32,000 nt of DNA. Source: Nitrosospira multiformis ATCC 25196. Its GTDB lineage: Bacteria; Pseudomonadota; Gammaproteobacteria; Burkholderiales; Nitrosomonadaceae. Shown here piece by piece: positions 9,529-31,848 of this stretch. A program made the translations under genes and the position numbers. Below the pieces are notes generated by a model. The model had not been told where the DNA came from, searched no databases, and worked only from the letters and a program-made list of their open reading frames with translations. The stretch covers positions 2,760,001 to 2,792,000 of the forward strand of contig NC_007614.1 in the NCBI RefSeq assembly GCF_000196355.1, read 5' to 3'. The number at the start of each line of letters is the position of its first letter. Position 1 is the stretch's first letter.

Positions 9529-9615
9529 GCCGGGATGGCGGAATTGGTAGACGCACGGGACTCAAAATCCCGCGACCGCGAGGTCATGGGGGTTCGATTC
9601 CCCCTCCCGGCACCA
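9529..9615 (+). tRNA. tRNA-Leu, anticodon CAA, encoded CCA end
   Basis: Hand-folded cloverleaf. Acceptor GCCGGGA/TCCCGGC, anticodon stem CGGGA/TCCCG with loop CTCAAAA, long variable arm CGACCGCGAGGTCAT, T arm GGGGG-TTCGATT-CCCCC, then A-CCA. Coordinates cross-checked against the frame of the overlapping track ORF 9136..9651. Confidence 0.93.
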
Positions 9616-10979: not shown

Positions 10980-13799
10980 TCAAGAACACACGAGGGTCGC
11001 ATCCCCGGAATCGGCCACTGGAAAAACAAATTTCCAGCCTTGACCCTCGCGCTGCCCTTCCAGAGTGCCACCGGACCAATTGATATGGCACTCTCCTTCA
11101 GATGCGACCGTCATTTCTAATGGCGTATGCGCACGCATTCGAAAATTAACGCCCCCTGACATTTTCTGCCATTCGTCAATCTCCCCGTTGCTGTGGGATA
11201 AATAAGGAGATAAGGGAAGCTCGGGTGTCATATACAGCAGCACTTGACCATGATTAGGCAAAAGATGCACATATCGCCCTTGACTCGCATCACGGACCCC
11301 TACAATCCCCTCCGATCTTTCCAAATCGGGCCACCCTGTCGACACTGGCAGACGTAACGTGCGTAGTGTATTCAGCCCTCTAATATCCCAGGCACCATCG
11401 ACACGGCGAGACATTGTAAGATTGCGGAATTCATTTACCTTCTGACCGTACTCGCTGACCCAGACAGGTCGATGTTCCTGTTTAACAGTCCACTCATACA
11501 CGGATTTCAGCGCATTGATGGAATCCGTTTTACTTCCTGAATAAAAGTGATAATGAATATGCAATGGTTTCAAACGAAGGGGGCGGTCAGTGAGTTGCAT
11601 GGTTTCGACGACGCGACTAAATGCGTGAAAGGGACCTTGCCATCTGTTTGTATAAACATGCTCGCTCGCCATGGGGGCATATAACTGGAGCTGGTCATCC
11701 ATTACATAACCCAGGGGGGGCACACGTGTCACGGTTTTTTCATCATTGGAAATCGTCGCGCCGCCGCCATTCATGTTCTCCAACCCAAGTGAACGCGCTA
11801 AAGCTAGAGCCTCTCTGCTTGCCAGCCCGTCCCCGGTCCATAAGAAAACACGCGCCCGCTTGTTCTCAGGCGCCAAGGTGTTATTAATATATTCCACGGA
11901 TCCGGCGATTTCCCGATGCAAGTCAAATCCATATCCATCGACAGAAAGCTGATACTCATCTCCATCAGCATCAATAGTGTTCTTTGGAAACCATGCGGAA
12001 GGATGACTATAGGAATGACTTGCTATTTCAACATGGTTCAACTTGAAAATATCTTGTGCTATTTTCTCGGCCTCAGTTACCTTGTCTGAGGAGCCGCGGT
12101 TCGCCGTTTCTCCTTCAATTATGGAAACCGTAGAAGGCAGGTTATATTTTTGCAAGAATTGATCCTGGATGACTTTTATCGCCAACGGCGTTCCAGGTAT
12201 TTCTGCTTTATTCCCAGCCCCATCACCATCAATCTGTACCAGCAATAAACGCCGGCCATTCTCGGTCGTGACATCGGGTACGGGTATTCCTTTTACATCA
12301 AGAGCAGTGCTTAAAAACTCAAATGGATTGATGATCCATCGTTTCAGCCCCTGGTAACCAGCTTCTATCACATAAGGATGCAAGGCGGTCCCGCCCCAAT
12401 TCCCGGAAAATACTGCAACCACCGGCTCTTCCGATTGACCTGTAAAACTTAGATGCTTTTGAACACCATCTTCCAATACTTGCCAGGCAGTGAACCCCCG
12501 TGTCACTGGTTGAGGTTTCGCCTCATAACCAATAATTTTATCGCTCCCCCTGACCATAAGTGAGCCCTCCAGGGATTCCGACTGACTTAGTTCCACCCCT
12601 AGATGCTTTAAAAAAGCATTATCAGCTTTAAAACCTAAATTTCCGAGAATAACAACTTTTACCCCAGCCTCCATCTGCCGCAACAGCCAGTCTCTATAAA
12701 CCGCCGGGTGCAATAAAGCATCGTTGTTGAACCAGCTCACGATTCCGGCATATTGCCCTGTCAATAAATTGCCGGGTAATCCAGCATTCACGTCCAGATA
12801 ATCGAGTGTATAACCCAGATGTTCCAGTGGCATGGCTAGCAATTTATGGATATCCGTCTGCTGCAGCCCTTCCGGATATTCGTGCCCGTCATAGAGCGCC
12901 AAGATGCGTCTAGGGAATATCTCCACCTTGCCAATGCCGAAAATATCCAATGCGGGGTTTGCCACCCAGGGCGTAAAGCCCAGATCAGATATTTTTTTTG
13001 CGGTAGCTCGCGCTAAATCCTTCTGCTTTGGATCAACGTAATCAATAACGATTATTTGCAGTTCATACCGATCTCGTGCCTGCCATAACTTCTGTAAGAG
13101 CCAGTTACGATCCGGCTCAGCAACTTCCGTATATTCCAAATCGATCGGATCCCAGCGTTGGAATAGCGATTCGGCGGCTAATGCAACCGCATACTGGCCT
13201 ACATGCGGCAAGATATCGAAACCCCGGTTAAGTATAAGTTCAACTCCCGGGAAACGCTCATGTATACTTTTAATCAGATTGGATAATGCTTTTTCCTGGT
13301 TTAACCGGGCAGCAGGTTCAACCGCAACCCTCTGGTATGTCTCCAGTCCATCCAAAAAAAATCCACGATAACCTTGTTCCCATAACCGGGACAAATACTT
13401 GTCAAGAAGATAGTCATGCCATCCTTGCTGAGTCAGGTCGAGGATACTGCTTCCCCATTCTTTATTACTGCCAATAAACCAGCTTTGCGGGATCTCTGAA
13501 TACCAGCTTCGTGTCGCATGGACTTCTCCGACGCTGACGTAGGCAAATACCTTAGTTCCCTTGTCAAAAAGATAATCCACATTATCCATGTTCTCGGGTT
13601 CTACTATGACCTGCGTAAAATGTGAAAGTAGATCCACCGGGGCAGGTCGGCCGTAGAAAATCGCGGTACTCGCGTATGCGGGCAAGCAGATAGAGGATAA
13701 AAGCATGCTAGAGATGAGCCTTAAAAAAGCATAATGATTCCCGAAAGTCGACTGGTACTTCATCATTGGCGTTATCCCATTGATGACCGTCATGGGCAT
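10980..13799 (-). CDS. pelA: PelA-like bifunctional periplasmic glycoside hydrolase / polysaccharide deacetylase
   Basis: 939 aa with signal peptide ...LLSSICLPAYA/ST. The N-terminal TIM-barrel hydrolase-like region has GYRGFFLDGLETY and ELILNRGF. The C-terminal CE4-like region has VQIDGDGAG and EIASHSYSHP (the H-S/T-x-x-H metal motif). Length and domain order match P. aeruginosa PelA. The true start may be the ATG at 13793, which has better SD spacing. Confidence 0.88.
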   Translation of the reverse strand: MPMTVINGITPMMKYQSTFGNHYAFLRLISSMLLSSICLPAYASTAIFYGRPAPVDLLSHFTQVIVEPENMDNVDYLFDKGTKVFAYVSVGEVHATRSWYSEIPQSWFIGSNKEWGSSILDLTQQGWHDYLLDKYLSRLWEQGYRGFFLDGLETYQRVAVEPAARLNQEKALSNLIKSIHERFPGVELILNRGFDILPHVGQYAVALAAESLFQRWDPIDLEYTEVAEPDRNWLLQKLWQARDRYELQIIVIDYVDPKQKDLARATAKKISDLGFTPWVANPALDIFGIGKVEIFPRRILALYDGHEYPEGLQQTDIHKLLAMPLEHLGYTLDYLDVNAGLPGNLLTGQYAGIVSWFNNDALLHPAVYRDWLLRQMEAGVKVVILGNLGFKADNAFLKHLGVELSQSESLEGSLMVRGSDKIIGYEAKPQPVTRGFTAWQVLEDGVQKHLSFTGQSEEPVVAVFSGNWGGTALHPYVIEAGYQGLKRWIINPFEFLSTALDVKGIPVPDVTTENGRRLLLVQIDGDGAGNKAEIPGTPLAIKVIQDQFLQKYNLPSTVSIIEGETANRGSSDKVTEAEKIAQDIFKLNHVEIASHSYSHPSAWFPKNTIDADGDEYQLSVDGYGFDLHREIAGSVEYINNTLAPENKRARVFLWTGDGLASREALALARSLGLENMNGGGATISNDEKTVTRVPPLGYVMDDQLQLYAPMASEHVYTNRWQGPFHAFSRVVETMQLTDRPLRLKPLHIHYHFYSGSKTDSINALKSVYEWTVKQEHRPVWVSEYGQKVNEFRNLTMSRRVDGAWDIRGLNTLRTLRLPVSTGWPDLERSEGIVGVRDASQGRYVHLLPNHGQVLLYMTPELPLSPYLSHSNGEIDEWQKMSGGVNFRMRAHTPLEMTVASEGECHINWSGGTLEGQREGQGWKFVFPVADSGDATLVCS

Positions 13800-19636: not shown

Positions 19637-20206
19637 TCACGTTCCCGTGATTTCGATCCTTGAAGTCAACTCTCTAAGCAATTTTTGTGCGGTGCCACTG
19701 AGCGATCCTGTACTCCAACCTGATCGCGCTCCACTTGCAGACCAAACGACTTTGCCAGAAGGAATCTCTATAACCCGTATCGTCAGGCCCACAACCGGCT
19801 CGCTGCCAACCCCCAGTTTGTATTGCCATTCATCAACGCTTCCGGCAACCACATAAGAAACATCATCCTTAATAGCGGACACCAATGCTTTTTCCTGGCG
19901 TGTCCGGTCATCGAATTCAAGCCACCCCCTCTTGTCTGCATCCGACTGTTGGTACATTTCTATATTTGTAATCCCTCTGATTCTGAGGAATGTGGCCAGC
20001 ATTTCTTCCACTTGCTCGCCTACCCGCGGAGTCTGTGAATAATTTTGAAAAGGCAAAATCATCCAACGCTCGGAAGGAGAAAGTGAGGGACCTTTCTGTA
20101 TGTCAATTACTGAACAGGCAGTCAAAGAATTGAACAAAATAATAAAAACGAAAAATCTAAGTTTTGTATTAACAAAGCCCATGATTTTTTTGTTACTGAT
20201 AAACAT
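19637..20206 (-). CDS. pelC: PelC-like outer-membrane lipoprotein
   Basis: 189 aa. Lipobox FNSLTA-C at residues 26-31, AAGAGG SD 9 nt upstream, and a position immediately upstream of pelD. The start could instead be the internal Met9. Confidence 0.8.
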   Translation of the reverse strand: MFISNKKIMGFVNTKLRFFVFIILFNSLTACSVIDIQKGPSLSPSERWMILPFQNYSQTPRVGEQVEEMLATFLRIRGITNIEMYQQSDADKRGWLEFDDRTRQEKALVSAIKDDVSYVVAGSVDEWQYKLGVGSEPVVGLTIRVIEIPSGKVVWSASGARSGWSTGSLSGTAQKLLRELTSRIEITGT

Positions 20207-20315
20207 AAACGAGACCTCTTTTTCTAATTAATTAATGGTCACTTTCTTATAGATTTGGTCCTATACAAGCGATGCAAAGCGACGTATTGCGACCGCTAAC
20301 TTGTCTAGCCTATTA

Positions 20316-20452
20316 GAGAGAGCGCCTGCTCTCTCAACCGTTCCGGAACGGGTTACCGCCAGTTTTCCAGCCCTGACAATGGGTACCGCTTTGAGTAGAT
20401 CCATATTACAAAGACTTCTGGAGCTCGCTATGTGCGCTATTTCACATAGCGA
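20316..20452. other. Cluster of perfect hairpins/palindromes in the long pelC upstream region
   Basis: GAGAGAGC-gcct-GCTCTCTC (20316..20335). The near-palindrome AACCGTTCCGGAACGGGTT (20336..20354) with a perfect 12-nt core CGTTCCGGAACG. A 10-bp stem TCGCTATGTG-N8-CACATAGCGA (20425..20452). All lie inside the mutually overlapping track ORFs 20261..20485(-) and 20301..20570(+), which I do not believe are genes. Confidence 0.5.
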
Positions 20453-20627
20453 AATCTTATTTCCTACAGCAATGCACGCTCCCACCAGAAAGGTGTATAG
20501 CTATTCCCGCATGTTTACGAATAACGGGCGGGATTGGAGCGTGATTTTCTGTATCTTGAATATCCTTTAGTACCATCAATTGAATGATGGCCGTCCTCGC
20601 TTTCTGCTGTGGGAATTGAAGAAAGCA

Positions 20628-21008
20628 AAGGTGGAGCTGCCGTTAAGGTCCTGAACTACAAATCATACGAACGTTAAACCTTGCTTCCGCATTAGGAATT
20701 AGTGGACCGGCTCGATCGAACCTGAGGATGCACTGATGTAGGGGGATAGGTAGATTGAATCGGAACTGAGGGGAGCAGGAACAAGATGCGCCCCGCATTT
20801 CGCGATTGGCGGCCTGTTCGGGGAAGGGCGCGAGACGCGAGGCAGGGCTGGTTCGGCGCGAGTTCCGGGCGGGAATATCCGCATGCGAAGGGGTTGCCGC
20901 TCAAGCCAGGTAGGTGGGATGGAATGAAATCAAACGCCGCTGGCAACCACAGACGGCGTTCCGGAAACCCACCTGCTTCTAAACCGATGTGATGAAGGTG
21001 GGAGCTGC
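20628..21008. other. GC-rich, ORF-poor, helix-rich element flanked by imperfect direct repeats AAGGTG(G)GAGCTGC. It may be a structured ncRNA or a small non-autonomous insertion; its identity is unknown.
   Basis: Direct repeats at 20628..20640 and 20995..21008. Nested complementary pairs: CGGAACT 20761..20767 with AGTTCCG 20861..20867, AGGTGGG 20912..20918 with CCCACCT 20968..20974, and AACGCCG 20933..20939 with CGGCGTT 20954..20960. Only Arg/Pro/Gly-rich overlapping ORFs occur here. Confidence 0.45.
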
Positions 21009-21032
21009 TGTCCTTTTCGAGGGGCGGCAGCT
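21003..21032 (-). terminator. 11-bp stem-loop 13 nt downstream of the GH114 gene stop; there is no adjacent U-tract in the present sequence
   Basis: AGCTGCTGTCC-ttttcgag-GGGCGGCAGCT (two G-U pairs). On the minus strand a T-rich run (ccacctttgctttcttc) would follow the hairpin only if the 20641..21008 element were removed. Confidence 0.35.
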
Positions 21033-21044
21033 ACGTTGGTGTGA

Positions 21045-22493
21045 CTATCTGCAGGATTCCCTCCAGGCATCCAGAGACAGGTTTTTCTTTAGAAAATCGA
21101 AATTCAATGTATTTGCTTGCGGGCAAAAGCTTGAATTCGCGAGATTGTATTCGATACCGAATACAGCTTTTCCGGCATCAACAAATGGTTTGAGTGTATC
21201 GCATTCGCTGTACTGGAAGCATTCTTCATTCACGGCAAAGTCGAAATAATTCACAAGATCCTTGATTTGGTCGAGATTATTTTTCAAACCTATAGCAAGC
21301 CCAAGTTCATGTGCCGCTTCAGCAAGGGCTACGTTATAAGTCAACTGATCGTTGTAGCTGAGGACAAATCCCGTATTGTTGCTGTAGCCGTCAACGTTGT
21401 CTGGATCGACGCCATCGCAGCCTTTCTGCGCGGCCTGTTCCATCCGCGCCCGCATGATGGGAATGAGAATATCCAATTTTCTTATGTCCAGCCATTTCTC
21501 ACCTGCCCAGCCGTCAAGATTCCGGCCGAGAACCACGATTGGAAATGAGGCAGCATCAGGACGCCAGTTTTCATGGCTCCCCGCACTAAAATAACAAATA
21601 ACTCGCTTGCCTGTTGATCTCAGTGCCGAGATAACCGCTGCACTTGTATCAAACAAATCGAGATTATAAACGTCGACACCGAGCGATGTATTAATCGTAC
21701 CAGTGTACTGAATTTGCCACTTTGATCCAGGGGCAGGTTGCCAGCGGTTTCCATCGTTTACAACGGTGGGCGGCTGGCTGCTAGCTGCATCATTGCTTGA
21801 CCCTAGGGTATCTGTAGATGGATCGGATACCGCACTTTTTACTTCCAACCCAATGAAATCAAGTTGGCTATTGTTTCCTCCATTCCTTGTCACGTAGCGT
21901 AACGTTATCTGATTCCGGCTGTTAATAAATTGGGATGGTTCTATTATCGTTGTGAGGATATCACTCCAGAATCCATCTTTTACATTGCCATTGTCTGCAA
22001 TATGGGCCCACTTGCCAGTTTTAACATTAAGTAATTGAAATTCCCACTTTTGAAGAGACTTTTCTCGCCCACGGTAATTTGCATGGAATATTAATTGCTG
22101 AATCGTTTTATCAGGTTTAGCTGGCAGATTGAACCGAAAAATTCCCACATATCCCAGTTGATCGGTAGCAAATTCTATATAGCTGTCCGAATTATCGTCC
22201 GAGCTCTGCTGATCTTTTACAGCGAGAACTTCCAGGGGCTGGGGCGTCGATGAACCTCTTTTATTTAATAAGCTAGATGGAAAAATGAACTCGGCGAAGC
22301 TCACATTCGCACTTAGAAGAGTAATGCCAACAAGCAGCTTAATTACGCTTTTTACTTGTCTGAGGGACTTGATCAAAGAAATATTCGCACTTAGAAGAGT
22401 AATGCCAACAAGCAGCTTAATTACGCTTTTTACTTGTCTGAGGGACTTGATCAAAGAAATATTAGAAATTGTATTTGTTGCGGTTTCCGACAT
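21045..22493 (-). CDS. Secreted or anchored GH114-family endo-alpha-1,4-polygalactosaminidase-like protein (Ega3-like) with an N-terminal beta-sandwich-like domain
   Basis: 482 aa with GAGGAA SD 8 nt upstream. The C-terminal ~230 aa carry GH114 (Pfam Glyco_hydro_114) hallmark strings: RVICYFSAGSHENWRPD, WLDIR, QKGCDGVDPDNVDGY, GLAIGLKNN and AVNEECFQYSEC. A Ser/Thr/Pro linker precedes the domain. The N-terminal signal-anchor is tandemly duplicated. Confidence 0.8.
   Translation of the reverse strand: MSETATNTISNISLIKSLRQVKSVIKLLVGITLLSANISLIKSLRQVKSVIKLLVGITLLSANVSFAEFIFPSSLLNKRGSSTPQPLEVLAVKDQQSSDDNSDSYIEFATDQLGYVGIFRFNLPAKPDKTIQQLIFHANYRGREKSLQKWEFQLLNVKTGKWAHIADNGNVKDGFWSDILTTIIEPSQFINSRNQITLRYVTRNGGNNSQLDFIGLEVKSAVSDPSTDTLGSSNDAASSQPPTVVNDGNRWQPAPGSKWQIQYTGTINTSLGVDVYNLDLFDTSAAVISALRSTGKRVICYFSAGSHENWRPDAASFPIVVLGRNLDGWAGEKWLDIRKLDILIPIMRARMEQAAQKGCDGVDPDNVDGYSNNTGFVLSYNDQLTYNVALAEAAHELGLAIGLKNNLDQIKDLVNYFDFAVNEECFQYSECDTLKPFVDAGKAVFGIEYNLANSSFCPQANTLNFDFLKKNLSLDAWRESCR
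22305..22463 (-). repeat. Perfect 78-bp tandem duplication (2 copies + 3 nt) inside the 5' end of the GH114 gene
   Basis: 22305..22382 is identical to 22383..22460. At protein level NISLIKSLRQVKSVIKLLVGITLLSA occurs twice back to back (residues 11-36 and 37-62). No mismatch was seen. Confidence 0.95.
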
Positions 22494-23080: not shown

Positions 23081-25216
23081 ATGAAAGAGAACTTGAGTCT
23101 GAAACGCTCGTTACTTGTCTCGGTGATAATGGGGCTGGCTTTAATTGGGGCATCGCCGGCATTTGCCGATAATGCTGTCAAATTGAGGATATTGCTCATT
23201 ACGACAGGCGATATAACGACAGACCCTGTATTTGCTTATATCAAGCCCGTCCTTGACGAAATGGGCGTGCAATACGATGTATTCAATGCCAACACGCAGG
23301 ATTTAACGGCAGCAATGCTCGCCTCTTCTTCAACCGGAGCCGTCTGCAAAGCTCAGGATGCCGGGTGCATAGGTAGTTACAATGGCATTATCTTGACCGA
23401 CTCTGACTTGGTCCCAGCCTTCACGCCTTCCGAATGGGATATCCTTCATGACTACCAGAAAAACTTCGGGGTCCGCGAGGCAGTGCTATCGGGGTGGCCG
23501 GCTACTTATTCGGACCCGGGACCTCCTTCTGGCATCTACCTGGATTACGGGCTTGTCTATTCATCCAGTGGAAACAACTACGAGGGTACGTGGAGCGTGC
23601 CCACCACAGCCAGCAAGGAAATTTTTGAGTATGTGAACCAGGCTAATCCACTTCCAATTACGGACTTTGCCTTCGCCGCCAATCCTCGAAATGATGGTAC
23701 CGCTATGCGGGATGGGACCGTAGCCACTGTTGAGCCCCTCCTCAAAACCCAGAATGGCGAAGCGCTGGTATCGGTCGTGCGGTACATGATGCCGAACCAG
23801 GCTACACCCGCACGCGAAGTCATGATCTCGACCATTACGAATGCTTCATTTCTCATCCACTCAAAAGTTCTGGCCTATGAGTTCGTCAACTGGGCGACGC
23901 AAGGGGTCTTCGTTGGGAAGCGCTATGTCCATATGGCAGCCCACGTGGACGATTTGTTTCTGAGCAACAGCCTGTGGGATTCCGAACTCAAGAATGATCA
24001 TCCTACCAATACCTATAGGTTAAACAGCGGCGATATTGCCAATGCAGTGAGCCAGCAGAACGCCTTTCGTGCCGCTCATCCGACAGCCGGGGCCTTCAAG
24101 CTGGATTTTGCCTTCAACGGTTCCGGGGCAGTGGTAGATCCGGAAGCAATGACATTGGCTCCAAATCTGACGGAAGACCTGGTAGCGGCAGTGGTGGCTA
24201 ATAAAGCACAATTCCGCTTCATCAACCACACCTTTACACATGCCGACATGGATAAGGCGCCGGTTCCGGCTAATGCTCCCTGTGATTATGAAACCTTTAC
24301 TACCATCGCGGCAATCAAGGCGGAAATTACCAAGAACCGGAAGGTCTGGGATCTTCTGACGCTTCCCGAGAGGAGCCAGAACAATCGGGTGCTCGTGAGC
24401 GGCAATCACTCCGGCTTGAAAGACCGCAAATGCACTGCGGATCCTGCCTTGCATCCGGAGATGTTCGACGTTCAATCGGATGACGTGGCATTTGACGAGG
24501 GTGGCGCCAATCCACTATTCCTCCAAGCCGTCGCTGACCTGGGCGTGGACTATCTTGCCTCGGACTCATCGCAAAAGGGCCAGAACCTCGAGCAATATAT
24601 CACTCAGTACGACGATGGCAGCAATACGGACCGGGTCATGCTGCCGCGCTGGCCCACCAGCGTTTTCTATAATGTAACGAACCCAGCTCTGCTGGTGGAT
24701 GAGTACAACTATATATTTCATGATAGGTTTGTAAAGGCCGGGCAGAATCCATGCGAAATACCGGGAGCCATCTGCACTCCCCGTAATTACGCGGAAATTC
24801 TACTGGCAGAGGCAGATACTGCATCACGCCACATGCTGATGTTCAACAAATGGCCTCATTTTTTCCATCAGACGAACGTGGCCAAATACGATGCAAGCGG
24901 CAGTACGCTCCAGTTTGACTGGTTGAGCGCCGTTTTCGCCCAGTACGAGCGGCTTTTCAAGCTACCGGTCAGAAATTATCCCTTTTATCTTATTGGGGAC
25001 AATACTGAAGAAGGTCTCAAAGCCAAAGCTGCGGCGATTCAAGCAGTGTGGAATCGCGCGACCAATCAGGTCACCCTGTCAGCAAACGTAGCCGTACCCC
25101 TTCTTTTTGTCACGGGTATCTCCGGCGGGGAACTATACGGCGGTCAGTTTATCCGTCGCATTAACATAACCACAACGCCCGCATCGTATGGGGTCAATCG
25201 GGGACTTACTCAATGA
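23081..25216 (+). CDS. Secreted metal-dependent polysaccharide deacetylase-like protein (CE4-superfamily motif order; possibly Agd3/CE18-like)
   Basis: 711 aa with AAGGAG SD 9 nt upstream and signal peptide ...LIGASPAFA/DN. Motifs occur in CE4 order: AAHVDD (residues 286-291, Asp-Asp), NHTFTH (382-387, H-T-x-x-H), LPRWP (521-525, RxP) and WPHFFHQ (591-597). The large N-terminal non-catalytic region matches the multidomain layout of fungal Agd3. The family assignment is inference. Confidence 0.6.
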   Translation: MKENLSLKRSLLVSVIMGLALIGASPAFADNAVKLRILLITTGDITTDPVFAYIKPVLDEMGVQYDVFNANTQDLTAAMLASSSTGAVCKAQDAGCIGSYNGIILTDSDLVPAFTPSEWDILHDYQKNFGVREAVLSGWPATYSDPGPPSGIYLDYGLVYSSSGNNYEGTWSVPTTASKEIFEYVNQANPLPITDFAFAANPRNDGTAMRDGTVATVEPLLKTQNGEALVSVVRYMMPNQATPAREVMISTITNASFLIHSKVLAYEFVNWATQGVFVGKRYVHMAAHVDDLFLSNSLWDSELKNDHPTNTYRLNSGDIANAVSQQNAFRAAHPTAGAFKLDFAFNGSGAVVDPEAMTLAPNLTEDLVAAVVANKAQFRFINHTFTHADMDKAPVPANAPCDYETFTTIAAIKAEITKNRKVWDLLTLPERSQNNRVLVSGNHSGLKDRKCTADPALHPEMFDVQSDDVAFDEGGANPLFLQAVADLGVDYLASDSSQKGQNLEQYITQYDDGSNTDRVMLPRWPTSVFYNVTNPALLVDEYNYIFHDRFVKAGQNPCEIPGAICTPRNYAEILLAEADTASRHMLMFNKWPHFFHQTNVAKYDASGSTLQFDWLSAVFAQYERLFKLPVRNYPFYLIGDNTEEGLKAKAAAIQAVWNRATNQVTLSANVAVPLLFVTGISGGELYGGQFIRRINITTTPASYGVNRGLTQ

Positions 25217-25926: not shown

Positions 25927-28900
25927 TCAGAAGCGAATGGAGTATTGGAGGCCGGCCCCCGCATAAGCCTGATTAGTCCTGCCGCCTTGGACATTGCTAT
26001 AAAAAACGCTGGCGCTAAGAATATCCGATCCCATTAACGATATCCCCATCAATACACGCGCGTTATACCCTAGATCATTAGCAGGCCACACCCATCCTGT
26101 CCACGCATCCCCAAGAACGAAGGGGCGTCGCAGCACTCCCTGATCAAACGGCCCATAGCGAAAACTCGTCCCCATGCCCATGAGAGCAAATCTCCGTGGG
26201 ATCAGCGTCTCCACACCCGGCAAGGAAGGGCTCAATACCCCAGTTAAGTCAGAAGGAGTCGTCTGTGTAAGGTCGTTTCTTTCCAATGATCCCTGAAGTC
26301 TGATTTGCCAATCCTGAATGCCTCTAAGCAAAGAGTGGCCCAGAATCGTTTGCACCTTATAGCCTTTACCCAGGTTATTTCCTTCCCTGGTGGAATAGCG
26401 ATGACCATCGATATCTACATGGAGGAATGTTTGCGGTGTTAATTGAGTAGTCACCCCCAGTAAAAGCATATCTTTTTTCCCTAGCGCTCGTAACGCCCCT
26501 GTTTCGTGGCTTAGTTCATTCACTCCTATACGCAAGCTGGTTTTTAATCTGCTTGTTACATCCTGGTTAACCCTGACTGCCCCGTAAGCAATGGAATCCA
26601 CTTCTCTCAAGTTGCCACCGACATTCACCTGGTATGCCCCTTGCCCCAGAGGATGCTTAAATTCCGCCATTATGTCTACTTCATTATGTGCAGGCAGAAC
26701 AATCTCCGGATTTGAAGAATCCAGATAGGTGTGCCTTACTTCCGCTGCCAGCACCCCACCTGAACCAGGCATATTAAAACGCGCTCGGCTTTCGATAAAA
26801 TTTATACGTCCAAGCGTCTTGAAGTCAACGCCTCCTGTTACTTGCTTGCTTGATTTTACTATCAGATCATCCCTGACACTGAAGAGGTAAGATTGCAGTG
26901 CAGGGTCTCCTTTATGTGAATCAAGAAGTTTATAGGTAAATGACAACGCCTCCTCGTTTCTCTCCAGACGCCTGAGCGTCTCCATTCTGTTGAAGTTCGA
27001 AAGCCTGTCATTTTCGCTTTCAAGAATATGCTCGGCAGCAGCGAGATCATTTTCCCCCAGAGCTAAAGCAAGGCGCTGCCACGCTGGTGTTTCCTGTCTT
27101 GCAACATGCTCTTGCAATAACCAGTAACGAGCAGCCGGATAATTCTCCTGAGATAGGTATGCAGCGACCAGCAATTCTTGAACTCCAGCATTGTCGTATC
27201 CTTTGGCCAGAAATTTTTTTAATATAGATACATCAGCATTCACGCCTTCCATGTCGCGCATCAAAGCCAGATATTCCGGACGTAACCACTCCTTAATCTT
27301 CCTGGCTGAAACCGCATTACCAATTTCCTTGAGACGTGATCTTAAGTTAAACAGGACGTATTTACGCAGACGCCACGCTCCATCCCTATACCCAGCCCTG
27401 TTCATGACATCAGCATAGCTGAGCAGCCAGAGATAATCATCAGGATTGATCCGCGCCTTGCGCTCAAACCAGGGCAGAGCTTCCTGGTTCTGGCCAACCT
27501 TGACCAATGCGGTTCCATAAACGCCCCATAAAGACCGGTTTTTTGAGGCATCGGCTTGCCAGGTTTTAATATAGGACCGGAGTAACCGCTTATCACCTCG
27601 GCCAATGAGATTCCATAAAATTCCTTCCTTTGCGGTAGTCGATGCCGGACTGACTTTTAAAGCTTGCTGATACTGCTTTAAAGCTATTTCAGGTTTGCTC
27701 TCCCGGGTATTCAACTCCGCGCGCAGGAGCCAGTACATCTCTGAGTCCAGAAACTGCGACTCCTTACTCATTGCCACTTTAAAAAGCCGCCTTAGTTCAT
27801 CTGACAAACCTGCCTGATTAGCAACATCCATAGCAAGCAGCAACCAACGAGGCTGTTTGAGACGATCATAAGCTTCTTCACCGATCGCGATGGATTCTTC
27901 TGCCCTGCCCATATCTCGCATCAACTGAATCAACCGTTCCGCAACAAGCGCATTGGCATTTTCTGATTTCCACAGAATGCCATAAGCCGTCACCCCATGC
28001 TCCAATCGTTTCAGGTCCCACGAAAGCTCCCCTAAAATCTCCCAGAAATACGTCTCATTTGAGGTCACATTATTTTTATTTGATAACAGTATAGAAAGAG
28101 CCTTCTCGGGTTTGCCGTTTTTCCGCGTTAATCTGGCTTGATGAGCCACCGCCTCTGGCATGCGATTGAAACGTGCCCCGATAAGTTGCCACGTCGTCAC
28201 GGCATCAGTTAATTGTTCTGCACTTTCCTGTGTTTTAGCCAACGCTTCCCATCCCTGTGAATCCTCAGGATACCGCTTTAAATAGGATTTCAGAAAATTG
28301 ACGTGATCAGCTAAGCTTCCCGCCTCCTTGTAGGCAGATAACAAGGTGTTCATTTCCTCGCTTGTTAATTTCCGTGTGTTTGATAACTGTGTCAGCAGTT
28401 CCAAAGCAGCATCGTAAGCTTTTAGCCCTACCGAAAGCCGAACCGCATTCATGATGGCCGCATCATCTTTCCTATTTCTTGCCAGCCATAACCATTCCTT
28501 CAATGCGATCTCTGGCATCAAAGCCCATTCTGCAATACGTCCCACCCTTTCATGAGCGCTTTCATCGGCTGGAACAATCTCAACCACCCGCTGAGCTAAA
28601 ACCAAAGCCGGCCGGATTTCCCCAACCGCAAGAGCACGATCGAGCTGCTTTTTAATTTGCACAGGATCGTTAGCCTCCAGCGCTAGCCGCAGTATGCCCA
28701 TTTCATATGCACGCCTCGGCTCGTTGTCAGCCAGATTAATACTGATAACCTCATCTACCAGTTCAGGATCTTGTGGAAATTTCTGCTGATAGTTACGGAA
28801 ATATTCGAGAGCGAGCTTACTATCGCCCGTCTCCCGCAATGCTTGAAGGGTTAGAATTGCAAACTGCCGGGCCTGGGATGCGTCCTTCGACATCTCATGG

Positions 28901-29499
28901 CATTTGTTATATATTTCCGCCGCCTTGCGGGGCATTTCTGATGCGATATACCACCTCGCCGATTCTTTTAATTTCTCCAGGCGTTCAGAAGAATCACGGA
29001 CCACGGCTGACCAGCGATAATACAGGCCTGCAACGACAGCAGGTTGCTCAAGTTCCAGGCTAAGTTTAATAACTTTAGGCAACAAAGTAACTGGAAGCCG
29101 CTCCTTACTGATCTCAACAATACTGTTCCGCAGGCTGGCTAATTTTGCTTTCCGACCTGGATCGTTTTCCGCTGTGGATAAATAATCCTTGAAGCCAATT
29201 TCCAATACCAATAGCCTGACACCTAACTCTGCCGGTTCTTTTAGCAACGGCTCCAACACAATACGAGCTTCATCCAGTTGGCCGAGGTTCATATAGTGCC
29301 GTGCGAGCTCGATGCGCAAGCTTCTATCATCAGGGTTTATATTTAACAGAAGCCTTAAATACTGTACTGAAAGATAGTCCGGCTTCTGTGTTAATAATTC
29401 TTTTAACTGATCCTCTTTATAAAACAAAAGAGCAAAAATAACGGTCAGCCCCAAAATGAACAGCGATATTGTTTTTTTCAAACTACCAAACAAATTCAT
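25927..29499 (-). CDS. pelB: PelB-like TPR scaffold plus C-terminal outer-membrane beta-barrel porin
   Basis: 1190 aa with AAGGAA SD 7 nt upstream. One N-terminal TM/signal segment, about 900 aa of TPR-like repeats, and a C-terminal region of alternating beta-strand pattern ending ...GAGLQYSIRF (terminal Phe, OMP signature). Length and architecture match PelB. Confidence 0.88.
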   Translation of the reverse strand: MNLFGSLKKTISLFILGLTVIFALLFYKEDQLKELLTQKPDYLSVQYLRLLLNINPDDRSLRIELARHYMNLGQLDEARIVLEPLLKEPAELGVRLLVLEIGFKDYLSTAENDPGRKAKLASLRNSIVEISKERLPVTLLPKVIKLSLELEQPAVVAGLYYRWSAVVRDSSERLEKLKESARWYIASEMPRKAAEIYNKCHEMSKDASQARQFAILTLQALRETGDSKLALEYFRNYQQKFPQDPELVDEVISINLADNEPRRAYEMGILRLALEANDPVQIKKQLDRALAVGEIRPALVLAQRVVEIVPADESAHERVGRIAEWALMPEIALKEWLWLARNRKDDAAIMNAVRLSVGLKAYDAALELLTQLSNTRKLTSEEMNTLLSAYKEAGSLADHVNFLKSYLKRYPEDSQGWEALAKTQESAEQLTDAVTTWQLIGARFNRMPEAVAHQARLTRKNGKPEKALSILLSNKNNVTSNETYFWEILGELSWDLKRLEHGVTAYGILWKSENANALVAERLIQLMRDMGRAEESIAIGEEAYDRLKQPRWLLLAMDVANQAGLSDELRRLFKVAMSKESQFLDSEMYWLLRAELNTRESKPEIALKQYQQALKVSPASTTAKEGILWNLIGRGDKRLLRSYIKTWQADASKNRSLWGVYGTALVKVGQNQEALPWFERKARINPDDYLWLLSYADVMNRAGYRDGAWRLRKYVLFNLRSRLKEIGNAVSARKIKEWLRPEYLALMRDMEGVNADVSILKKFLAKGYDNAGVQELLVAAYLSQENYPAARYWLLQEHVARQETPAWQRLALALGENDLAAAEHILESENDRLSNFNRMETLRRLERNEEALSFTYKLLDSHKGDPALQSYLFSVRDDLIVKSSKQVTGGVDFKTLGRINFIESRARFNMPGSGGVLAAEVRHTYLDSSNPEIVLPAHNEVDIMAEFKHPLGQGAYQVNVGGNLREVDSIAYGAVRVNQDVTSRLKTSLRIGVNELSHETGALRALGKKDMLLLGVTTQLTPQTFLHVDIDGHRYSTREGNNLGKGYKVQTILGHSLLRGIQDWQIRLQGSLERNDLTQTTPSDLTGVLSPSLPGVETLIPRRFALMGMGTSFRYGPFDQGVLRRPFVLGDAWTGWVWPANDLGYNARVLMGISLMGSDILSASVFYSNVQGGRTNQAYAGAGLQYSIRF

Positions 29500-31772: not shown

Positions 31773-31848
31773 TGGTAGCGAATCCCAGATTCGAACTGGG
31801 GACCAACGGATTATGATTCCGCTGCTCTAACCACTGAGCTAATTCGCC
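31773..31848 (-). tRNA. tRNA with anticodon CAT (Met by anticodon; sequence looks more like lysidine-modified tRNA-Ile2)
   Basis: The reverse complement is GGCGAAT-TA-GCTCAGTGGTTAGAGC-A-GCGGA-ATCATAA-TCCGT-TGGTC-CCCAG-TTCGAAT-CTGGG-ATTCGCT-A-CCA. The D arm and variable region (TTAGCTCAGTGGTTAGAGCAG...TCATAAT...TTGGTC) closely follow E. coli ileX rather than metT or initiator tRNA. Confidence 0.85.

Follow-up and report, generated by a model that had tools for sequence, protein, structure and literature searches.

A GC-rich stretch between the GH114 gene and pelC in Nitrosospira multiformis is probably a gene trailer followed by a plastic, fast-evolving spacer

Is the conspicuously GC-rich DNA between two genes of the Nitrosospira multiformis pel cluster a mobile insertion, a structured RNA, a leader controlling the genes downstream, or the trailer of the gene upstream and the spacer beyond it? 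The stretch, 20628-21032 of the 32,000-nucleotide segment that we analysed (hereafter the window), is part of the 838-nt gap between the stop of the GH114 gene (21045-22493, minus strand; Pfam Glyco_hydro_114 and GH114_assoc) and the start of pelC (19637-20206, minus strand), which is followed by pelD, pelE, pelF and pelG. The pel cluster is rearranged, with pelB at 25927-29499 on the minus strand, a gene for an Agd3-like deacetylase at 23081-25216 on the strand opposite to the pel genes, and a PelA-like gene at 10980-13799. Rearrangement and duplication of pel operons are documented for Nitrosospira (PMC7112194). A preliminary description of this DNA had labelled the GH114 and pelC genes correctly in substance; we place both on the minus strand. 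The pelC reading frame has no Pfam match, and we named it from its place ahead of pelD and the names given to its homologues. Contig FNVK01000014.1 of assembly GCA_900108135.1 has an identical sequence, and the named relatives nearest to the window belong to Nitrosospira, Nitrosovibrio and Nitrosomonas. We favour, with moderate confidence, the reading that the GC-rich stretch, here called the element for brevity, consists of the 3' trailer of GH114 and a plastic, fast-evolving intergenic spacer.

The sequence features reported earlier for the element were all found where they had been placed. The GC content reaches 0.62 over 20700-20999, whereas the flanks have 0.39-0.50, so that the stretch does stand out from AT-richer surroundings; the whole window averages 0.50 and its backbone before 10 kb 0.53-0.56. 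The bracketing direct repeats are present on the plus strand as AAGGTGGAGCTGC at 20628-20640 and AAGGTGGGAGCTGC at 20995-21008, and the helices 20761-67/20861-67, 20912-18/20968-74 and 20933-39/20954-60 are exact complements. Two partners exist for CGGCAGCT (21025-32), a complementary one at 20635-42 and an imperfect one at 21003-13, and the only coding content consists of overlapping Arg/Pro/Gly-rich reading frames. The motif AGGTGGGA occurs twice in the window, both times within the element. What did not hold is the idea of a single bounded element at 20628-21032, as the listed features do not form one unit. We also considered tmRNA- or tRNA-like ends, since the repeats, which run GCAGCTCC(C)ACC along the operon strand, resemble a tmRNA 3' end; ARAGORN predicts no tRNA or tmRNA in the element, and Rfam likewise finds nothing.

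Searches with GH114 and PelC recovered orthologous GH114-pelC spacers from a set of related loci. They include a very close relative (L179/L180; L179 spacer 1352 nt, L180 ending within the spacer), a Nitrosospira metagenome-assembled genome (L093, equal to L099; spacer 1330 nt; L095/L096 are of the same lineage), L094 (706 nt), L097 (698 nt) and L098 (the first 96 nt up to a contig end) from the same clade as the window, and the more distant L088 (equal to L070; 686 nt), in which the element is mostly absent: its GC-rich core is missing and the flanking motifs are kept. A further contig, carrying P0121, has a GH114 of 92% identity and a spacer of 927 nt, and two contigs (L003 and L005) break at a palindrome near 20350. 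An HMM of the element gave one match in the window and, in related loci, matches only at the GH114-pelC position. Five related Nitrosospira lineages have the same sequence in the same place, and it was thus inherited rather than recently inserted. This distribution indicates that the GC-rich element is an inherited feature of a narrow Nitrosospira clade.

The divergence of the spacer tracks that of the flanking genes across L093/L099, L095/L096, L094, L097, L098, L179/L180 and, in part, L088. The element diverges faster than the third codon positions of GH114 and pelC: its identity between the window and L093 is 0.83, against 0.88-0.93 for the third codon positions, and the corresponding values are 0.62 against 0.79-0.80 for L094 and 0.66 against 0.74-0.84 for L097. 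Between the window and L179, the flanking genes are 98.7-98.9% identical and the element 94.6%. Sliding cross-clade identity is 0.78 beside the GH114 stop and 0.54-0.66 over about 20800-21020, falls to essentially none over 20570-20790, where the sequences are unalignable, and peaks at 0.87 at 20395-20444; within the GC-rich core it ranges from 0.28 to 0.66 over 20745-20920 and is about 0.1 over 20695-20770. The profile shows that the claim of one 400-nt unit joins a moderately conserved part to an unalignable one.

The moderately conserved part contains the hairpins that follow the GH114 stop codon, a TAG at 21045..21047 on the minus strand directly 3' of which the trailer starts. The first hairpin (21003..21032, minus strand; -10.9 kcal/mol) has mismatches in the window, and no U-run adjoins it in the window lineage. 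It aligns with perfect post-GH114 hairpins in the Nitrosomonas loci L102, L103 and L012, and from this match, made by eye and with MAFFT, we infer homology. The L102 hairpin is a perfect stem, AAGCTGCTGCCC-TTCC-GGGCAGCAGCTT, followed by TTTAGGG, and one Nitrosomonas hairpin has TTTTT behind it; pelC is not the neighbouring gene in those loci. The hairpin of the window thus appears to be a weakened descendant of an ancestral GH114 terminator hairpin. The earlier suggestion that an insertion had split the GH114 terminator from its T-tract survives in part: the hairpin does match the GH114 terminator hairpins of relatives, and the insertion as the cause of the split found no support. Next on the minus strand is a short helix (20968..21002), an inverted repeat in which CCCACCU (21002-20996) pairs with AGGUGGG (20974-20968) around a loop in which relatives have a T-run. 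The helix is kept only partly in L094 and L097, and AGGUGGG has an alternative partner in a second CCCACCU at 20918-20912.

The second hairpin (20933..20960, minus strand; AACGCCG...CGGCGUU) is preceded by GGAA and followed by the U-rich tail UGAUUUCAUUCC (20932-20921). Its orthologue in L093 has a perfect stem of 13 pairs, 9 of them GC, and the tail GATTTTATGC, and is flagged by a terminator scan. The predicted energy reaches -32 kcal/mol in both L093 and L097 but -22.7 in the window. The window's stem is mismatched at two inner pairs, and its tail, by eye UUUGAUUUCAUU, is interrupted. The consensus scan did not mark 20933-60 as a terminator in the window or in L097, which the inner mismatches or the short U-tail explain; L094 and L097 have weak U-tails. 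The stem has been kept by compensatory change at two pairs between clades, with AU in three sequences and GC in two at alignment columns 278/303, and CG in two and GC in one at columns 284/297, numbers that represent few independent events. The hairpin is terminator-like only in the direction of the operon, because on the plus strand its tail reads UUCCGGAAACCC. A dispersed hairpin was considered and set aside, as 20933-20960 is unique in the 32-kb window and the related loci. From these features, the second hairpin is the best candidate for a GH114 terminator.

The preliminary description had offered a structured RNA of about 400 nt as one explanation. That view does not fit an element that matches no Rfam family, evolves faster than third codon positions and has a left third that is unalignable between clades. 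The earlier description could match it to no RNA family, and Rfam covariance models gave nothing relevant in the window or five orthologues. In the window, no Rfam 15 family reached its gathering score, and at E<10 over 20450-21150 the only match was a chance one to a microRNA model (14 bits); among the orthologues, L093, L094, L097 and L088 had none at E<5, and L179 had nothing relevant. The helix-dense look of the core follows from its 62% GC by itself.

A smaller and more specific version of this explanation, a structured RNA of about 250 nt that would be lineage-specific and lie on the plus strand at around 20790-21044, antisense to the operon, is unlikely in our judgement, although several folding statistics point its way. 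The fold of 20600-21045 compared with shuffled sequences gave z -2.57 on the plus strand and -0.87 on the operon (minus) strand, and RNAalifold on the five-sequence alignment gave -70.6 kcal/mol on the plus strand versus -43.5 on the operon strand. Column shuffling of a four-lineage core alignment gave z -2.3 (6/300 shuffles as good) for the plus strand and -1.3 (34/300) for the operon strand. Over the first ~255 nt, single-sequence z values in four lineages were -2.0, -3.4, -0.4 and -1.9 on the plus strand, three of the four folding better than shuffles, and -0.9, -2.0, -1.2 and -1.3 on the operon strand. The plus strand is G-rich, as structured RNAs often are, and in the plus-strand fold 92% of the cells are paired and nine pairs have changed on both sides. 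The signal is gone, however, once the two terminator-type hairpins are excluded: without the first ~125 nt, the core of five lineages gave z values of -0.6, -1.0, 0.0, +1.3 and +1.3 on the plus strand and -1.8, +1.6, -2.0, +1.0 and +0.6 on the operon strand. All of the structure signal falls within the ~125 nt next to the GH114 stop. Further points against a plus-strand RNA are the z of only -0.36 in L094, the outcome of a consensus scan that found no promoter-like site and no terminator on that strand, a hairpin at the would-be 3' end that is followed by ACGUUGGUGUG, the rate of evolution above that of third codon positions and the lack of a matching Rfam family. The covariation counts, coming from only four to five lineages in two clades, reflect very few events. 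Base substitutions give an equivocal answer about the strand. Several one-sided changes in L094, L097 and L093 remain paired only as G-U on the plus strand, and in the first hairpin the substitutions of L094 and L097 favour the plus strand, whereas two changes in L179 keep the pairing only on the operon strand; a strand call from G-U versus A-C changes was abandoned.

Beyond the hairpins lies the GC-rich core (20703..20923), which is fast-evolving and contains 41% C and 21% G on the operon (minus) strand. In the four aligned lineages, that strand has a C/G ratio of 1.3-2.6 between about 105 and 310 nt past the stop, and L088, unalignable there, has a C-rich tract of its own nearer the stop, at about 79-235 nt. 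The excess of C over G is opposite to the G-over-C skew of the local coding strands; in absolute value it is not extreme for the window. The core may be a loading tract for Rho or neutral spacer, and a composition that is kept while the sequence is not fits a Rho loading tract and unconstrained, locally biased DNA equally well.

The best-conserved part of the spacer lies outside the element and closer to pelC. A block at 20395..20452 (minus strand), with a cross-clade identity of 0.87, is kept in all lineages and contains a perfect inverted repeat of 10 nt with an 8-nt spacer, TCGCTATGTG-N8-CACATAGCGA, and a -10-like TAATAT at 20403-20408. Both arms of the repeat have changed together in L088, from TATGTG/CACATA to TTTGTG/CACAAA, and the block is partly kept in Nitrosovibrio tenuis, which has another gene upstream of pelC. 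Read on the plus strand, the inverted repeat receives a terminator-like flag in the window, L093 and L179. A consensus scan found no sigma-70 consensus promoter in 20150-21150, so the assignment of the pelC promoter is one that we infer; the block is the probable promoter/operator of pelC-G.

The presence of this block bears on the proposal that the element is a leader or riboswitch of pelC. The block, a putative promoter/operator, stands between the element and pelC and is better conserved, the element itself is poorly conserved, and relatives tolerate about 490 nt between the two; the leader reading was dropped on these grounds. In a related explanation, GH114 and pelC-G would be co-transcribed and the hairpins would form an attenuator in which exclusive pairings tune read-through. 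GH114 and pelC do share a strand, AGGUGGG can pair with either of the two CCCACCU copies, AGCUGCCG can pair with 21003-13 or 20635-42, and the distant GH114 trailers of L008 and L010 also show three-segment G5/C5 arrangements. We nevertheless regard an attenuator as improbable. Neither L094 nor L097 has the 8-nt distal partner of CGGCAGCT; L179 and L093 have lost it along with the left repeat, and with it the alternative pairing that had been suggested. A segment of 472-493 nt is tolerated between the element and pelC with the gene order kept. The trailer accompanies GH114 also where pelC is not downstream. Where other genes precede it, pelC still has a long upstream region of its own: in Nitrosovibrio tenuis and Nitrosomonas Nm58, whose genes upstream of pelC differ from those of the window, this region measures 624 and 938 nt, respectively, and was rejected as a counterpart of the element since it is not homologous to it. 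There is, moreover, no leader peptide and no match to a known riboswitch.

A broader variant assigns a function to the trailer alone. Its first ~150 nt comprise a hairpin and then CCCACCU, AGGUGGG and CCCACCU, with the GC hairpin between the last two, and this unit might be a conserved Nitrosomonadaceae RNA switch governing read-through into pelC-G, the source of a small RNA derived from the 3' UTR, or an antisense RNA of the plus strand. The idea comes from the modest excess of the alignment fold on the plus strand, a few covarying pairs and the loosely similar three-segment arrangements of L008 and L010, and we consider it quite unlikely. A covariance model (R1) of the 150 nt that follow the GH114 stop found members of the same clade only; L008, L010 and L101 were not recovered.

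The same spacer is plastic, and this plasticity is part of the case for a miniature inverted-repeat transposable element (MITE) that would have inserted with a 13-nt target-site duplication and parted the GH114 terminator hairpin from its T-tract. L179/L180 and L093/L095 have an extra non-coding segment of 472-493 nt between GATTCGT and GATTTGT, at a site where the window has a single GATTTGT (20658..20664, minus strand). As L093 is an outgroup to the window and L179, the simplest reading is that the window lineage underwent a precise deletion or excision, by which it would have lost about 490 nt at 20658-20664. The segment has no Rfam match, no conserved reading frame and no other copy in related loci; a small protein encoded in it was considered and rejected, as L179 has stops and frameshifts that interrupt the 61-aa reading frame of L093/L095. 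Close relatives thus gain or lose a ~490-nt segment with a 7-nt boundary repeat in the very spacer in which the GC-rich part, of a GC content unlike its surroundings, is bracketed by a direct repeat of 13/14 nt, and joining the repeats would put the hairpin 5 nt from UUUGCUUUCUU.

A MITE is all the same very unlikely to be the origin of the element. The direct repeat is within chance expectation: dinucleotide shuffling of the 838-nt spacer yields one of equal or better quality, defined as two exact runs joined by one indel with 13 matches, in 9% of cases, and the repeat is probably a coincidence. Relatives that have the element do not preserve the repeat: on the operon strand its left copy reads GACAACTCCACCTT in L179 and GCAGCTCCGCCTCCGCCTT in L093, and it has no counterpart in L094 or L097. 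The suggested layout of a target duplication with inverted repeats also has the wrong geometry: the only inverted arms that span the element end to end are 20635-42 and 21025-32, and the latter lies outside the right repeat. The element occupies the same site in all five lineages, no member of the clade lacks it, its divergence matches that of the flanks, and the conservation gradient ignores the repeat boundaries. No empty site was found, all relatives with the GH114-pelC order carrying the element; nhmmer and pattern searches gave no extra copy in the 32-kb window or the related loci, and collections of plasmid and phage DNA held nothing similar. The claim of an insertion with target-site duplication found no support.

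A decayed GC-rich protein-coding gene, suggested by long stop-free frames on both strands and by the reading frames that gene callers annotated in relatives (131 aa in L097 and 118 aa in P0241), is extremely unlikely, since orthologous elements differ by many indels that are not multiples of three, tblastn of the element frames matches the orthologues in two frames simultaneously, and Pfam, at E<=10, matches none of the reading frames of the element. HMMER compared one frame, the longest without a stop (112 aa, operon strand), with 1.84 billion proteins and gave three matches, namely the spurious 118-aa P0241 of a near-identical relative and two repetitive low-complexity proteins; P0241 fuses three different frames of the window sequence, which means that the reading frame is not conserved. 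A remnant of a neighbouring gene was likewise rejected, tblastn against the element of the 4243 reading frames of 80 aa or more in the window and a set of related loci returning only the element's own frames and noise.

The favoured reading, trailer plus spacer, can be laid out as a sequence of events on the operon strand. Transcription would pass the GH114 stop and then the weakened ancestral terminator hairpin (21032-21003), followed by the short CCCACCU/AGGUGGG helix. GH114 transcription now most likely stops, wholly or in part, at the GC-rich hairpin at 20960-20933 with its U-rich tail. Any transcript reaching further would contain about 220 nt of C-rich, G-poor RNA, which might serve as a back-up terminator by loading Rho or may simply be unconstrained DNA. 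In the spacer beyond, segments come and go freely, the window lineage having probably lost about 490 nt at 20658-20664, and pelC-G would be driven from a promoter/operator of their own at about 20395-20452.

The significance of these results beyond annotation is small. Annotating the GC-rich patch as a mobile element or a new RNA family would be unwarranted, and so would annotating it as a gene, given the spurious 118-131-aa reading frames that public gene callers place in relatives. For the regulation of pel in these ammonia oxidisers, the place to look is 20395-20452, with its conserved inverted repeat and -10-like block. Should the terminator reading hold, GH114 and pelC-G are separate transcription units within the rearranged pel cluster.

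Compared with known systems, the element resembles MITEs as a short non-coding segment of deviant composition with a short direct repeat at both ends; unlike them, it has no correctly placed terminal inverted repeats, no extra copies in the window and related loci and no empty site in close relatives, and its repeat is within chance. With the intercistronic hairpins of REP and BIME type, which stabilise the mRNA upstream of them, it shares GC-rich stem-loops between same-strand genes of a polysaccharide cluster, whereas REP elements are dispersed in many copies and the hairpin at 20933-20960 is found once in the 32-kb window and the related loci. The likeness to Rho-dependent terminators consists of some 220 nt with more C than G (C/G up to 2.6 in 78-nt windows) on the transcribed strand after a translated region, a composition kept in four aligned lineages despite the unconserved sequence; the core differs from classic rut sites in its higher G content of 21%, and low structure is inconsistent among lineages (z -2.0 to +1.6). 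Compared with the intrinsic terminators of gene 3' trailers, tandem and decayed ones included, the first hairpin of the window is mismatched and has no adjacent U-run, and the second, whose terminator role is predicted, has two inner mismatches and an interrupted U-tail. The resemblance is nevertheless broad: the trailer has GC-rich hairpins directly 3' of the stop on the coding strand, one of them with a U-rich tail and an A-rich segment upstream; its stem is kept by compensatory changes while loop and flanks drift; and probably homologous hairpins with T-runs stand behind GH114 in related genomes.

The highest conservation of any noncoding block in the interval between the GH114 gene and pelC was found at 20395-20452, which is probably the pelC-G promoter/operator. 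This block contains a perfect inverted repeat, TCGCTATGTG-N8-CACATAGCGA (20425-20452), adjoined on the minus strand by a -10-like TAATAT (20403-20408). It was retained in the more distant locus L088, where the two arms of the inverted repeat have changed in a compensatory manner, and partially retained in Nitrosovibrio tenuis. When read on the plus strand, the same block gave a terminator-like score in the window and in the related Nitrosospira loci L093 and L179. The presumed pelC 5' leader holds a perfect palindrome, CCGTTCCGGAACGG (20338-20351), followed by the hairpin GAGAGAGC-AGGC-GCTCTCTC (20310-20331); both were kept in L093, not across clades, and the palindrome is the end point of two Logan contigs (L003 and L005).

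Elsewhere in the spacer, close relatives carry an additional noncoding segment of 472-493 nt between GATTCGT and GATTTGT (826-1325 in L179 and about 1748-2219 in L093). Because the window holds a single GATTTGT at the corresponding place (20658-20664), we read its lineage as having undergone a precise deletion or excision there. The segment had no Rfam match and no conserved ORF, and no further copy was found among the fetched loci. Within the GC-rich core, one clade shows a 13-nt tandem duplication, two copies of TCGCAAGCGGATA (3472-3497 in L097 and the homologous place in L094, equivalent to about 20880 in the window), which exemplifies the slippage-type indels shaping the GH114-pelC spacer. 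Public gene calls on the noncoding spacer of relatives comprise ORFs of 131 aa (L097, 3432-3827, minus strand), 118 aa (P0241; L179, 418-774), and 61 aa (L095, 2193-2378, minus strand). Because none of these reading frames is kept from one lineage to another, the ORFs appear to be spurious predictions in GC-rich sequence.

Distant GH114 genes without pelC downstream have trailers (L008/L007, about 1526-1730; L010/L009; L101/L011) that share the loosely similar motifs GTAAYYGCC, CGAAAAGG, CAGYAGCT, and TTTTCAWYAGCAGG, followed by a three-segment arrangement CCCCCGC...GCGGGGG...CCCCC. The covariance model, built on the first 150 nt after the GH114 stop, recovered none of these distant trailers.

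The pel region (about 10-30 kb) is AT-richer than the backbone before 10 kb (GC 0.44-0.51 vs. 0.53-0.56) and lies between tRNA-Leu(CAA) (9529-9615) and tRNA-Met(CAT) (31773-31848), which suggests a horizontally acquired island with tRNA genes at its bounds. Three distinct PelA-type functions are encoded in the cluster: the stand-alone GH114 with a GH114_assoc domain (21045-22493), a gene for an Agd3-like (CE18-type) deacetylase in the opposite orientation (23081-25216), and, after pelG, the gene for a 939-aa PelA-like protein (10980-13799). This pel layout is unusual; locus gain and rearrangement of pelA are on record for Nitrosospira (PMC7112194).
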